DNA of 64,000 nucleotides, from NCBI GenBank assembly GCA_963837175.1, contig CAWIMJ010000021.1, positions 11,901 through 75,900 on the forward strand, written 5' to 3'. The translations under genes were made by a program, and so were the position numbers. This DNA is from an uncultured Nitrososphaeraceae archaeon. GTDB lineage: Archaea > Thermoproteota > Nitrososphaeria > Nitrososphaerales > Nitrososphaeraceae. This document shows positions 47,669-63,008 of this stretch, in pieces. Position 1 is the first letter of the stretch; each line of letters opens with the position of its first letter. The notes beneath the pieces are model-generated. The model saw only the letters and a program-made list of their open reading frames with translations, did no database searches and was not told the DNA's origin.

Positions 47669-50124
47669 TTGACTTCTATACCACTACTGACTTTTCTTCT
47701 TATTACACTTTTCATGCTATCCATTAGTGTATTATTATTTGAGCTTGCACTCACTAGAATTTTTTCAATAATCCTCTGGTATGATTATGCTTTTATGGCG
47801 ATTTCCGTAGCGTTTTTTGGACTTGGAATTGGATCCTTGCTGATACACATTCTGAAGAATAAAATAAAAAGAGAGAAACTAGCATCAAAAATACTTCAAA
47901 CTACTATAATTTTTGCAGTGTCTGTGCCAATCTTTTTACTCGTAATAGGACAAATCATCCCACCAAACATATATTTCATTTATCTATTCTATTTGGCTTC
48001 TTCAATTCCTTTCTTTTTTGCTGGAATTTCGATGTCACTAATATATTTTGCAATGCCTAGAGAAGTAAGCAAACTATACTTCATTGATCTAGTCAGGAGC
48101 AGCGTCGGCTACACTTATGCTTGATCCTCTAATGCAAAGATTAGGTGCAGAATCTGTGCTACTTTCGGCAGCTCTGTTAGTACTCGGTCCTTCTCTTATT
48201 GCTGCCTTTATTATTGTCCACTTCACAGAAAAAGAATGTATCAGACGCGCCAGTAATTGAAAACAAAATAAAGCTGTATGGAATAATTGTGTTGGCTGCC
48301 TCTACTGTGTTATTAGCAGCTAATTCAGGCTCCAATATAATAGCAATAAAACCCGGCGAAAACAAAGGATTGCATTATCAGTTGTCAAAGCCTTCAGAAT
48401 TTGAGCATTTATCAACCCAATGGAATTCTTTCTCTCGAATTGACGTTACTAGACAAATCCATCATCATGACAGCGACAACGATAATACTGGTAGATCTAG
48501 AGCCCTAGCCGCAATAGCTATCGATGCCGATGCCGACACTCCAGTCTTTAGATGGAATGGTTCGTCTGCAGATCTTCTATGGATGAAAAAATATATGGAT
48601 TATTTACCATTTGAAATATCAAATGATGTCAACAATACTTTAATTATTGGTAGCGGTGGAGGGGAGGACGTTTTAATTGCCTTGGCTGGAGGCTCGAAGA
48701 AAGTCACTGCAGTAGAGATAAATCCATTGATAATATCAACAGCAAAACAATTTGGCAATTCTACAGGAAATTTATACGAACGTAATGAGGTGGAATTATT
48801 CGTTGATGATGGCAGACGATTTATCAGCTCTAGTAATTCAAAATATGACATGATAGTAATAAAGCTCGTTGATTCTTGGGCTGCTCAGCTTGCTGGTGGA
48901 TATGCACTTTCAGAAAATTATCTCTATACAGTAGAAGCGTTCAGAGAATATCTACATCACTTGGATGAAGATAATGGGATGCTTGTTATGGTACGTTGGA
49001 ACTTTGAATTGCCAAGACTCATGCCCCTAATAGCAGAATCTTTACGACAGGAGCAAAAAGAAGGAAGTATGGAAGACATTAGTCAGCAGATTTTGGTAGT
49101 CGAAGATCGGCCTGGATTATATTTTGCATCAAACGATCAACAAACAATATATCCGGTCGTTCTAATAATAAAAAATAGTCCATTTACTGATTCAGAAATT
49201 AATCTGGCAAAGGAGAGGATCGCTAACAATAATGCTAAAGTAATTGCAATGCCAGATGGATATATAGAACCTCCTTATGACAGACTACTATCAGATAAGA
49301 ATTATTATTATCATCGTCAACAATTGCAAGAAAATGATCCTAAAACAAGTTTAGAGTTAAAACCGCCAACCGATGATTCACCATTCTATTTTGCAAGAGA
49401 GCAGATTCCAAACCAGATGATATTTCTCTTAGAAACTGTTCTTGGAGTATCTGCAGTACTTGCTTTGCTTTTGATATATTATTCAAGAAGAAATAAAATT
49501 CAACTAGTTACATCGTCAAGGTCATCATGGTTCCATATGATCTTTGTATTGTTTATCGGACTTGGGTTCATGTTTCTAGAAATAACCTTTATTCAAAAAT
49601 TTCTGTTGTTACTTGGAACACCAATAATGGCATTAACTGTTATTCTTTTTTCGATCCTACTGTCTAGTGGAATAGGCGCATATTTGAGTGGAAGACTATT
49701 TCGTAAAAATCCTTATAAGGCTGTAGTAATAACAATACCCCTTCTGGTTGGAATAGTATTAACATACTATGGTCTACTACAAGAAATTATATATACAGGT
49801 ATAACTCTGCAACTGTCGCAGAGAATTGCGTTGACTTTTGCGCTTATATTGCCTGCAGGTCTTCTTATGGGATTTCAATTTCCATCCATTATTAGAATGG
49901 CTTCCATGCATTCAGTGAAAGATAATAATACTGATGGGGATATCACTTTGCTATGGGGTATAAACGTGATCGCCTCAGTAATAGCAACCGTGTTGACTGC
50001 TATATCCTCCATGGTGATTGGCTTTAACGGCAACCTGTTAATCGGAGCAGGATTATACGTTGGGGCATTAGTGTCTGCCATAGCAGCAGTGAAATTAAGA
50101 CGAAAGCTCGCTCTCCCAACTTAG
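47669..50124 (+). CDS. Large membrane protein with central spermidine-synthase-like SAM-binding domain (frameshifts near 48095-48190)
   Basis: N-terminal TMs (LFELALTRIFS); IIGSGGGED, AVEINP, DDGRRF, ENYLYTVEAF, PPTDDSPF; C-terminal TMs (GLGFMFLEI). Confidence 0.85.
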
Positions 50125-51638: not shown

Positions 51639-51789
51639 GTATACGAAGTATCCGATTTGATAAGAATCAGATTATTGGCTTTTTTCTATATAGTTGAAGA
51701 TTAGAATACCAAATTAATCATATCTATTAATGTCACTCTCTATTGCCTGAAGAGACAAAGATATATTTCCCTTGTGCAGAAATGCTGTC

Positions 51790-51917
51790 AGCGGGGTGGG
51801 GAAGCCAGTTATCTCTGAGAAGAGAGAGGTTAAGTAATCCCGGCGGGCTCATAACCCGCAGAGCGGTTTCCATCTGCTTAAAGCATTTGGCTGTATGTTC
51901 AAATCAACCCCCCGCTA
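51790..51917 (+). tRNA. Initiator tRNA-Met (CAT) with two introns (51809-51833 and 51869-51896)
   Basis: Acceptor AGCGGGG/CCCCGCT with A1:U72; D-stem GGGA/TCCC; anticodon arm GCGGG-CTCATAA-CCCGC; spliced T-arm GGTTG-TTCAAAT-CAACC; mature length 75 nt. Confidence 0.92.
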
Positions 51918-51943
51918 TTATTTTTAAAAGACATATGGTACTA

Positions 51944-53311
51944 TCATGTGGCAAAAGAAAACCATTTAACAAATAATTTTGAATCTGAGATAAAACTTAG
52001 TGATTTCTTTTCCATTCCATATCTATAGATAGGTTTGGTTAAATGTCTATGTGATTTTGGAGCCGGAAGGTAGAGTCCAATTTCAAGGTTTCTATCTCTT
52101 GCTACATACACTTTCTCTGTATTATGGTCTTTATATCCACATCTATTGCATTGGAATCCTTTATTTTTTCCCTCTGATTTCATTCTCTTTCCGCAATCTT
52201 TACATAAAGGATTGCTTATATCATAAGTTTGAACAAGTTTCAAAATAGAAAGATACTCTATGTTCAAAATTTTTGCATATTTCGATGTTGCTTTCCTAAC
52301 TCCGCATCCAATTCTAACTAAATCTCCTGGTTCCAACTGGGATGCAATATTTGTTAAACATGTTGGCTCATATATTGCAGCAGAAAAAATGACACCAGTA
52401 AAATCCTCAACCGTGAATAAGACGTGCCCTCCTTTGATTATAAGAGGCTTAGTTTTTATTTTGCATCGCACATGACCTGCCATGTAAGCTTTGACCTTTG
52501 ATAGTTTTAACTCATTTTTCAAATGCATATCCGTTCCTTGGTTTGAGCGGAAAACCATATACCCTTCCAATTTCTCTTCTGGTTGTAACGTTTCTAATGA
52601 TGATACAACCGCTTCTGGATTTTCACCTCTTATACCACAAAAAACAGGATCCGGCCCATGTGGAGCAATTAAAATGCGTTTGTGATATTGATCATAATTG
52701 TTGAAAGTGTTAGGAAATGTATATTTGCTATATTCTATTACTTTGGAAATATTTAGTATCCTACGAGTCCCGCAATTTTCTGGTTTTCTGTATGCTATTG
52801 CTTCAAACGTATGGTCGCCATGTAACAAACAACCGATCGCAGCTAGTGAGCCTACTAGACCTTGACCGTTTCCAAAAGTGAAATACTTAATTCCATATTT
52901 TTTCGCCAGAGTTTCTGCTTTTTGTTTACTTAAACTGTCATACATAGCAATATTACTAAATTCCTGTATATCTTCTGGGACTTGTTCTCTATCATAAAAT
53001 GCAAGACCAGGATTTGCTCCTGAGTATATTGATGATCCTTCTTCTACGAGTTGTTTTATACTTTCCATAATTTGTTCATGATTTTTTGCCTTAATTCTAA
53101 GGCAAACAGCACCGTTACCACGTGTTTTCCAAGGAACATTTGGGTTTAATCTTATAAGTAGTGGATAATCAAGAAAGTCTGTTTTTTTTTCCCTCAGCAA
53201 ATAGTCTGTAATTTTAAATGCCAAGTGAGTAGTGCATCTGCCCTTCAAAGAGTCAGTATCATCAAATCCAATATGTAAAATCTGAGAAGGTCCAGTACTC
53301 TTGGTAGTCAT
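51944..53311 (-). CDS. tiaS: tRNA(Ile2) 2-agmatinylcytidine synthetase
   Basis: IGFDDTDS, CTTH, LIRLNPNVPWKTRGNG, PHGPDPV..GIRG, SNQGTD, OB fold, C-terminal Zn ribbon, RHLTKP. Confidence 0.97.
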   Translation of the reverse strand: MTTKSTGPSQILHIGFDDTDSLKGRCTTHLAFKITDYLLREKKTDFLDYPLLIRLNPNVPWKTRGNGAVCLRIKAKNHEQIMESIKQLVEEGSSIYSGANPGLAFYDREQVPEDIQEFSNIAMYDSLSKQKAETLAKKYGIKYFTFGNGQGLVGSLAAIGCLLHGDHTFEAIAYRKPENCGTRRILNISKVIEYSKYTFPNTFNNYDQYHKRILIAPHGPDPVFCGIRGENPEAVVSSLETLQPEEKLEGYMVFRSNQGTDMHLKNELKLSKVKAYMAGHVRCKIKTKPLIIKGGHVLFTVEDFTGVIFSAAIYEPTCLTNIASQLEPGDLVRIGCGVRKATSKYAKILNIEYLSILKLVQTYDISNPLCKDCGKRMKSEGKNKGFQCNRCGYKDHNTEKVYVARDRNLEIGLYLPAPKSHRHLTKPIYRYGMEKKSLSFISDSKLFVKWFSFAT

Positions 53312-62618: not shown

Positions 62619-62702
62619 GCGGGGGTCGCCTAGCCTGGTAGGGCGTGGGATTGCTAATCCCATGTTCGAAAGAACTCGTGGGCTCGAATCCCACTCCCCG
62701 CG
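62619..62702 (+). tRNA. tRNA-Ser (GCT)
   Basis: Acceptor GCGGGGG/TCCCCGC; anticodon arm TGGGA-TTGCTAA-TCCCA; long variable arm GTTC-GAAA-GAAC; T-arm GTGGG/CCCAC; discriminator G. Confidence 0.95.
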
Positions 62703-63008
62703 CTTTACTTGAGATTTCTAAGCAAACCTTTTAAGCTTCATAGAATTCTCTTTTTCATAGTGACACTGGAACGGATATCAGCAGAGAGTATCTCTGGATT
62801 AGAAAAAAGAATACCTGTAGCAACCAAACAGTAATGAACTTTCGATCGGATTAGTTTCAAAATCCTATCAAATCAAATTTGGGCATCAACATGATCGTCA
62901 TATAAAATGCTAGCAGATATAACAACAACAAATTTTCCTATATAAAATTAATTTAATACTTCATAATATCTATCAATATATTCAAATGCCTTTATTTTAT
63001 GATTCGGA

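Follow-up and report, generated by a model that had tools for sequence, protein, structure and literature searches.

In the 64,000-nucleotide stretch of DNA analysed here (the window), a preliminary description had singled out one short locus as an initiator tRNA-Met gene interrupted by two introns outside the canonical position, at a place where an open reading frame also suggests a small protein. Is this locus a working gene for the tRNA that starts translation, and how might its transcript be matured? We are highly confident that window positions 51790–51917 hold a functional, twice-interrupted initiator tRNA-Met gene.

Anatomy and identity of the gene

Cut by script on the plus strand, the gene separates into consecutive pieces of 19, 25, 35, 28 and 21 nt, which are listed here together with the reading frame that overlies them.

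51790..51808, plus strand: exon 1, with the 5′ strand of the acceptor stem, U8, G9, the 5′ strand of the D stem and the D-loop up to G18
51809..51833, plus strand: intron 1, 25 nt, splitting the D-loop between G18 and G19; a hairpin, then GGTT, the pairing partner of AGCC in the exon (positions 14–17)
51834..51868, plus strand: exon 2, with G19, the 3′ strand of the D stem, the anticodon arm, the variable loop and T-stem positions 49–52; CAT at 51850–51852
51869..51896, plus strand: intron 2, 28 nt, in the T stem between positions 52 and 53; a hairpin, then CTGT, which pairs with exon GCGG (positions 47–50)
51897..51917, plus strand: exon 3, with G53, the T-loop, the 3′ strands of the T stem and acceptor stem, and the discriminator A
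51743..51976, plus strand: 77-aa open reading frame with a TTG start, overlying the tRNA gene; spurious

With 51809–51833 and 51869–51896 removed, the remaining three pieces join into a product of 75 nt that ARAGORN identifies as tRNA-Met(cat), bearing out the cloverleaf put forward in the preliminary description. By ARAGORN, the product has a 7-bp acceptor stem whose first pair is A:T and ends in a discriminator A. Its 4-bp D stem closes a 10-nt loop with GG in it, the variable region is 5 nt long, and the T arm has 5 bp in its stem and TTCAAAT as its loop. The anticodon arm consists of the 5-bp stem GCGGG/CCCGC, with three G:C pairs at its foot, and the loop CTCATAA. This loop is uninterrupted in the window gene, so the further claim that there is no canonical intron at 37/38 also stands. 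The spliced product has a G+C content of 62.7%, compared with 34.0% genome-wide, and CCA is absent from the gene sequence, exon 3 ending at the discriminator. The junction of intron 2 can be written in the window as 51/52 or 52/53 with an identical product, because T flanks both cuts; in some relatives intron 2 ends in A or G, which fixes the junction at 52/53.

Archaeal initiator tRNAs are characterised by A1:U72 and by the pairs G29:C41, G30:C40 and G31:C39, as listed in an excerpt of PMC6412873. All of these are present in the window gene alongside the CAU anticodon, in line with the hallmarks first attributed to it and with that feature list, and they hold in the aligned genes of the family, where A1:U72 occurs in 34 of 34 and the three G:C pairs are invariant (34 of 34). 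The window belongs to a genome of 3.81 Mb, assembled into 58 contigs with a completeness of 91%; our survey of its tRNAs returned 38 ARAGORN calls and 30 matches to the Rfam tRNA model. Two other CAU tRNAs were found (C16:52255–52330 and C50:312818–312894), both intron-less, with G1:C72 and with anticodon stems that lack the three G:C pairs. They could fill the roles of elongator tRNA-Met and tRNA-Ile2. The initiator-type anticodon arm motif has a single occurrence in the 91%-complete genome. An intron-less initiator gene elsewhere, which the preliminary description had named as potential counter-evidence, was sought, and no other initiator-like CAU tRNA was found in that assembly.

Transposition of the introns within the genome was considered separately and rejected, as blastn-short found no second copy of the introns or of the gene: searches with each intron and with the whole precursor against the genome returned the locus itself only, the next matches being 12–21 nt long with E values of 0.7 or worse.

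The suspicion that such a gene could escape standard tools proved justified for the two that we applied. On the unspliced window DNA, ARAGORN made no call at the locus, with or without its intron option. Rfam found no tRNA there at the gathering threshold and none at E values up to 10; the unspliced locus does not reach the 29-bit cut-off of the tRNA model RF00005, and at a permissive threshold the interval 51700–52000 gave two chance matches only (snoR15, E 4.8; U6atac, E 2). The same holds for ARAGORN across the family, where 34 of 34 spliced genes were called tRNA-Met(cat) and 0 of 34 unspliced ones. Neither ARAGORN nor the Rfam tRNA model sees the sole initiator tRNA gene that was found in this genome. 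An annotation made without an archaeal search for non-canonical introns would leave the initiator tRNA off its list and might enter a spurious protein of 77 aa.

Some observations on tRNA detection lie to the side of this locus. A natural intron-less orthologue (L043) scores 65.6 bits with RF00005; another (L041; G033:C39, 174–248, minus strand) is tRNA-Met(cat) by ARAGORN yet, unlike the similar L043, fails to match RF00005 at the gathering threshold. At 62619–62703 (+) lies an ordinary tRNA-Ser(GCT) without introns, the sole tRNA in the window seen by ARAGORN and Rfam. Over the whole genome, these programs detect none of the tRNAs for Asp, Asn and Phe, and two genomic Rfam matches span model positions 9–63 only (C17:49730–49788 and C16:125288–125344). 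The genome probably conceals more tRNA genes whose introns are non-canonical or multiple.

Conservation and splice-site structure

The preliminary description proposed comparing intron positions among relatives. We searched 60 relatives by BLAST with the 128-nt gene, added the remaining loci, and parsed full-length genes from the family, 34 in all when the window's own is counted. Full-length matches that included the introns came from most of the family's genomes, at 73–98% identity, and matches to the exons only came from other families of the order. The same two introns, at 18/19 and 52/53, are common to 32 of 36 Nitrososphaeraceae genomes. Among the exceptions, one genome (G020) has the T-stem intron only, one (G009) has a D-loop and a T-loop intron, and one (G033) has an intron-less gene. 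The last (G005), of the same genus and 94% complete, yielded neither the anticodon-arm pattern nor a match to TiaS, the product of the neighbouring gene described below; as the tRNA gene and tiaS are missing alike, the region is unassembled there, and its absence is not evidence of loss.

Exons and introns have evolved very differently in these genes. The exons of the 34 parsed genes have a mean pairwise identity of 98.5% and make up just 8 distinct mature sequences; in a MAFFT alignment of all 34 (A1), the acceptor and D-stem columns of exon 1 are invariant or nearly so and exon 2 is almost invariant. Intron 1, by comparison, has 31 distinct sequences among 33 genes and ranges from 14 to 27 nt, and intron 2 has 33 among 34 and ranges from 24 to 34 nt. 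Fixed exons combined with drifting inserts of changing length indicate real introns and rule out a chance cloverleaf.

In a bulge-helix-bulge (BHB) splice site, a 4-bp helix lies between two 3-nt bulges, with relaxed forms, termed hBH and HBh′, at non-canonical sites (described in part of PMC4090602). The motif of intron 1 in the window has the central helix AGCC/GGTT with bulges AGT and AAG; that of intron 2 has GCGG/CTGT, including two G:U pairs, with bulges TTT and ATG. Under the pairing rule that we applied, the exon contributes a word of four nucleotides lying two positions 5′ of the 5′ junction, and this word faces four intron nucleotides that end two before the 3′ junction. Helix 1, AGCC against GGYU-like words, forms four pairs in 25 of 33 genes, three in 6 and two in 2; helix 2, GCGG against YYGY-like words, forms four pairs in 29 of 34 genes and three in the remaining 5. 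Variation on the intron side of the helices is mostly C or U opposite G, so that pairing is preserved. Each intron also contains a hairpin between its 5′ bulge and its pairing word, the sequence of which varies among genera while its pairing is kept.

Folded to its minimum free energy (−46.4 kcal/mol; z −2.35), the window precursor forms both intron hairpins, AGCC:GGUU and the stems of the acceptor, D and anticodon arms; of 200 shuffled sequences, 3 fold as well. GAGCG is paired with UGUUC in this structure in place of GCGG:CUGU, which can be forced at a cost of 2.4 kcal/mol. A consensus fold by RNAalifold recovered neither central helix, preferring an invariant exon–exon pairing of GAGC with GUUC, and we therefore tested an explicit BHB model on alignment A1, comprising the acceptor, D and anticodon stems, both central helices and the outer parts of the hairpins. 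The model has 95.5% of its cells paired, compared with 39–48% when the 3′ partners are slid by 1–3 columns. Cells changed on both sides number 53, where shuffling gives a mean of 14.7. None of 500 shuffles (0) attains the covariation score of the real alignment, a count that is not a probability because the sequences of A1 are related. The slid controls preserve this relatedness, yet still fail. In the hairpins, pairs changed on both sides amount to 5 of 5 in intron 1 and 3 of 4 in intron 2 (outer pairs).

Both 5′ splice sites fall in 3-nt bulges (AG/U and UU/U, the slash marking the cut) closed by the intron hairpin. At the 3′ site of intron 1 (AA/G), three more unpaired D-loop nucleotides follow, giving six unpaired before the D stem in all, and the outer exon–exon helix of intron 2 has two weak pairs at best. 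These weak or displaced outer helices place both sites in the relaxed hBH/HBh′ class and not among strict BHB motifs. Two relaxed sites had been claimed from the outset, and we find them with the helices and bulges then given. By the general rule for such sites, the splicing endonuclease would cut after the second bulge nucleotide. In the window, this cut is the only junction that restores G18G19, and it restores the T stem as well, as had been claimed.

One relative's gene (L007; G021:C5) reads AGCCGAG in exon 1 where all others read AGCCAG. Applied to it, that cut rule leaves the D-loop lacking G18G19; moving both cuts back by one nucleotide restores GG. The oddity may be a real difference of register or an assembly error; in view of this case, the cleavage register is not fixed by sequence alone.

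Expression, maturation and the tiaS neighbour

Signals that could govern transcription lie on either side of the gene, and a second gene meets it from downstream.

51755..51768, plus strand: putative promoter, a purine-rich BRE-like stretch, then TATA-like ATATATTT at 51761–51768 (−29 to −22 from the mature 5′ end)
51918..51925, plus strand: T-rich run TTATTTTT, directly 3′ of the gene; likely transcription stop
51944..53311, minus strand: tiaS (tRNA-Ile2 agmatidine synthetase), tail to tail with the tRNA gene, from which a 26-nt spacer separates it

The general layouts of archaeal promoters (BRE/TATA) and terminators are the basis of these assignments. By eye, the motif (A/G)AGATATAT, in full form AGAGACA(A/G)AGATATATT, occurs at a similar distance in most of 41 upstream regions, and by analogy with the archaeal layout we infer that it may serve as a BRE/TATA promoter. 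On the same analogy, the T-run at 51918–51925 is likely to stop transcription; T-runs follow the gene in many, not all, relatives.

Eight sequencing runs were identified, of which two are recorded as RNA, both with small word shares. Logan contigs of four runs contain no joint across either intron. The contigs from RNA libraries, which can show neither splicing nor strand nor ends, lie only over 51893–52189, an interval that covers the 3′ end of the tRNA, the spacer and the 3′ end of tiaS.

The preliminary description held that a tRNA of this kind needs a splicing endonuclease of broad specificity. Two ORFs with the endonuclease domain PF01974 are encoded in the genome, of 183 and 207 aa. The PDB chains closest to the 183-aa ORF are 3p1z_B, 2cv8_A, 3ajv_B and 2zyz_B (E 3e-40 to 7e-34), which we take to be crenarchaeal catalytic subunits. 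Closest to the 207-aa ORF are residues 23–174 of 5x89_A, the N-terminal EndA-like part of a fused construct, and 1a79. By sequence likeness, the two paralogues fit the catalytic and structural subunits of an α2β2 endonuclease. Thaumarchaeota endonucleases are of the α2β2 type, which an excerpt of PMC4090602 links to non-canonical and multiple introns; the need voiced for the window gene is thus matched by an encoded two-paralogue enzyme of the type that is said there to accept non-canonical sites. The ligase RtcB is encoded as well (E 7e-174).

Taken together, these elements suggest a route of maturation. A TATA-type promoter some 25 nt upstream would drive transcription of the single-copy gene, and the precursor would carry two protein-spliced introns, of 25 nt at 18/19 and 28 nt at 52/53. 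The helices AGCC:GGUU and GCGG:CUGU would form relaxed BHB sites, each with its 5′ splice site in a 3-nt bulge between helix and hairpin and its 3′ splice site in a bulge on the opposite strand. A heterotetramer-type endonuclease would cleave each bulge behind its second nucleotide and RtcB would join the exons; end trimming and addition of CCA would then yield the 75-nt initiator tRNA. The sequences themselves show the anatomy, the cloverleaf, the conservation and covariation, and the genes for the enzymes; we infer, on these grounds, the transcription, cleavage register and ligation of the window tRNA and its role in initiation.

Exon identity of 98.5% over 34 genomes with all cloverleaves intact, inserts that vary yet keep their pairing, a promoter-like motif conserved upstream and a genome in which no other initiator-like CAU tRNA was found sit poorly with the idea of a decaying tRNA pseudogene with two insertions, the working initiator tRNA being encoded elsewhere. 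We hold that idea to be very improbable, even allowing for the room that a genome just 91% complete leaves for a second initiator gene and for the failure of ARAGORN and Rfam to recognise the locus.

The tail-to-tail arrangement with tiaS was part of the preliminary description, and the domains of the neighbouring ORF at 51944–53311 confirm the gene's identity (Pfam: TiaS_FLD, 1.4e-37; TiaS_TCKD, 1.3e-22; Zn_ribbon_TiaS, 2.2e-15). TiaS is the enzyme that must tell CAU tRNAs apart. The arrangement is kept among relatives: by tblastn of the window TiaS, tiaS is convergent and directly downstream of the tRNA gene at 25 of 29 loci, the search giving no hit at the other four (L003, L010, L025 and L027). 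We also assembled a TiaS-anchored set of 80 loci from named records (Nitrososphaeraceae MAGs, Candidatus Nitrosopolaris, Nitrososphaera and Candidatus Nitrosocosmicus), in which 77 loci have a two-intron gene no more than 1.5 kb away on the other strand, two have none in the retrieved stretch and one has another layout. Since the sets have species in common and the genomes are related, these counts describe a conserved gene order, not independent events. The convergent orientation excludes co-transcription.

This adjacency, at 77 of 80 loci, together with the anticodon CAT, could be read as the pairing of a substrate with its enzyme, the gene then encoding a CAU-bearing tRNA-Ile2, the substrate of TiaS, or else an elongator tRNA-Met. 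We give such an identity very little credence: A1:U72 and G29–31:C39–41 are initiator features, A:U at 1:72 is kept in all 34 aligned genes, and two G1:C72 CAU tRNAs are already available for elongator-Met and Ile2.

Least credible is a 77-aa protein-coding gene with coincidental tRNA-like features, a reading so improbable as to be nearly negligible: the TTG-start ORF noted in the preliminary description does exist at 51743–51976 (+), and some frame is free of stops across the gene in 25 of 41 homologous genes, a test that is weak on its own, but no Pfam family matched the ORF, conservation is limited to the three exon blocks, differences in intron length among relatives are not multiples of three, and 16 of the 41 genes have no open frame across the gene.

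Elsewhere in the window, a 641-aa ORF at 48199–50124 (+) has a weak match to a spermine/spermidine synthase domain (E 1.8e-6) over residues 136–228 only.

Known systems and intron number across Nitrososphaerales

An initiator tRNA-Met gene with two introns can be compared with interrupted tRNA genes already known. Both Crenarchaeota and Thaumarchaeota are on record as having non-canonical tRNA genes with more than one intron (parts of PMC8450103 and of PMC4090602, the latter citing Sugahara 2007/2008), and tRNAscan-SE 2.0 has a BHB covariance model trained on Thaumarchaeota introns, with 107 non-canonical introns counted in that phylum (excerpt of PMC8450103). With these genes the window gene shares short introns outside 37/38, more than one per gene, relaxed BHB splice sites and a host with a two-subunit endonuclease. 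There is no difference in kind, the window gene being the initiator gene of an uncultured Nitrososphaeraceae genus; since multi-intron tRNAs with relaxed BHB sites are documented for Thaumarchaeota, it belongs to a kind already described. A literature search on introns in the Nitrososphaera initiator tRNA found nothing, and the per-genome intron tables of PMC8450103 may already include such genes. What is added here is the pair of sites, 18/19 with 52/53, common to 32 of 36 family genomes.

Initiator genes of unusual structure are known from two other archaea, the split gene of Nanoarchaeum equitans, divided at 37/38, and the permuted gene of Thermofilum pendens, opened at 59/60 and carrying a canonical intron besides (both from an excerpt of PMC3218864). 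Like them, as far as that excerpt describes them, the window gene is an essential initiator gene, present in one copy, whose maturation would require the splicing endonuclease; unlike them, it is contiguous and colinear, interrupted twice, with neither intron canonical. The canonical intron at 37/38 has a 4-bp helix and two bulges that carry the splice sites, the rest of the intron being free to vary (portion of PMC4090602 on the strict BHB). The window introns share the 4-bp helix flanked by two splice-site bulges described there, and they likewise vary apart from what pairing demands. They differ in lying in the D-loop and the T stem, in their weak or displaced outer helices, and in the exon nucleotides that enter the central helix, which come from the D-loop (intron 1) or the variable loop and T stem (intron 2) in place of the anticodon.

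To follow the introns beyond the family, 136 full-length genes drawn from overlapping sets were aligned, with splicing, to the window mature sequence or to two natural intron-less orthologues, an intron being counted if it was 8 nt or more. The numbers of introns per gene were as follows.

No intron: 2 genes
One intron: 4 genes
Two introns: 123 genes
Three introns: 5 genes
Four introns: 1 gene
Five introns: 1 gene

All 136 spliced products are tRNA-Met(cat) by ARAGORN, a figure that is partly by construction, as the products were selected by their likeness to tRNA. The insertions fall in at least six regions: the acceptor stem at 4/5, the D-loop at 18/19, the D arm near 21/22, 37/38, the T stem at 52/53 and the T-loop near 58–60. 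Outside Nitrososphaeraceae, the regions include the acceptor stem at 3–5, the D-loop at 18/19, 37/38, the T stem near 47–53 and the T-loop near 56–60, positions given to within 1–2 nt. Because the sites at 18/19 and 52/53 are also found in several other families, they predate Nitrososphaeraceae.

Two genes stand at the upper end of this range. Removal in silico of four inserts of 18, 16, 30 and 23 nt from L059:75–236 (minus strand), and of five inserts of 18, 17, 16, 30 and 24 nt from L126:2992–3171 (minus strand), leaves a perfect 75-nt initiator cloverleaf in each case, and a single copy of the initiator anticodon arm was found in each of the two genomes. An excerpt of PMC8450103 gives up to three introns for archaeal tRNA genes; with four and five inserts, these genes lie above the maximum published there. 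A literature search for four-intron archaeal tRNAs found none. We suggest, with somewhat more doubt than conviction, that the initiator tRNA gene of Nitrososphaerales is an exceptional hot-spot for introns, of which the window gene would be the stable two-intron state, and that its convergent lock with tiaS might reflect coupled expression or termination.

The phenomenon is one already described, and the finding opens no new question. Its weight is that, throughout a family of soil ammonia oxidisers, translation initiation would depend on predicted endonuclease cuts at two relaxed sites in one precursor, and that a single gene with near-identical exons, whose introns have been gained and lost at several sites across the order, makes a clean natural series useful for studying tRNA intron turnover and endonuclease specificity. 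Some 100 nt away from one member of this series, the initiator tRNA gene of G020 with its T-stem intron only, a fluoride riboswitch lies at L030 1710–1790 (+) (RF01734; 45 bits, E 2e-10).
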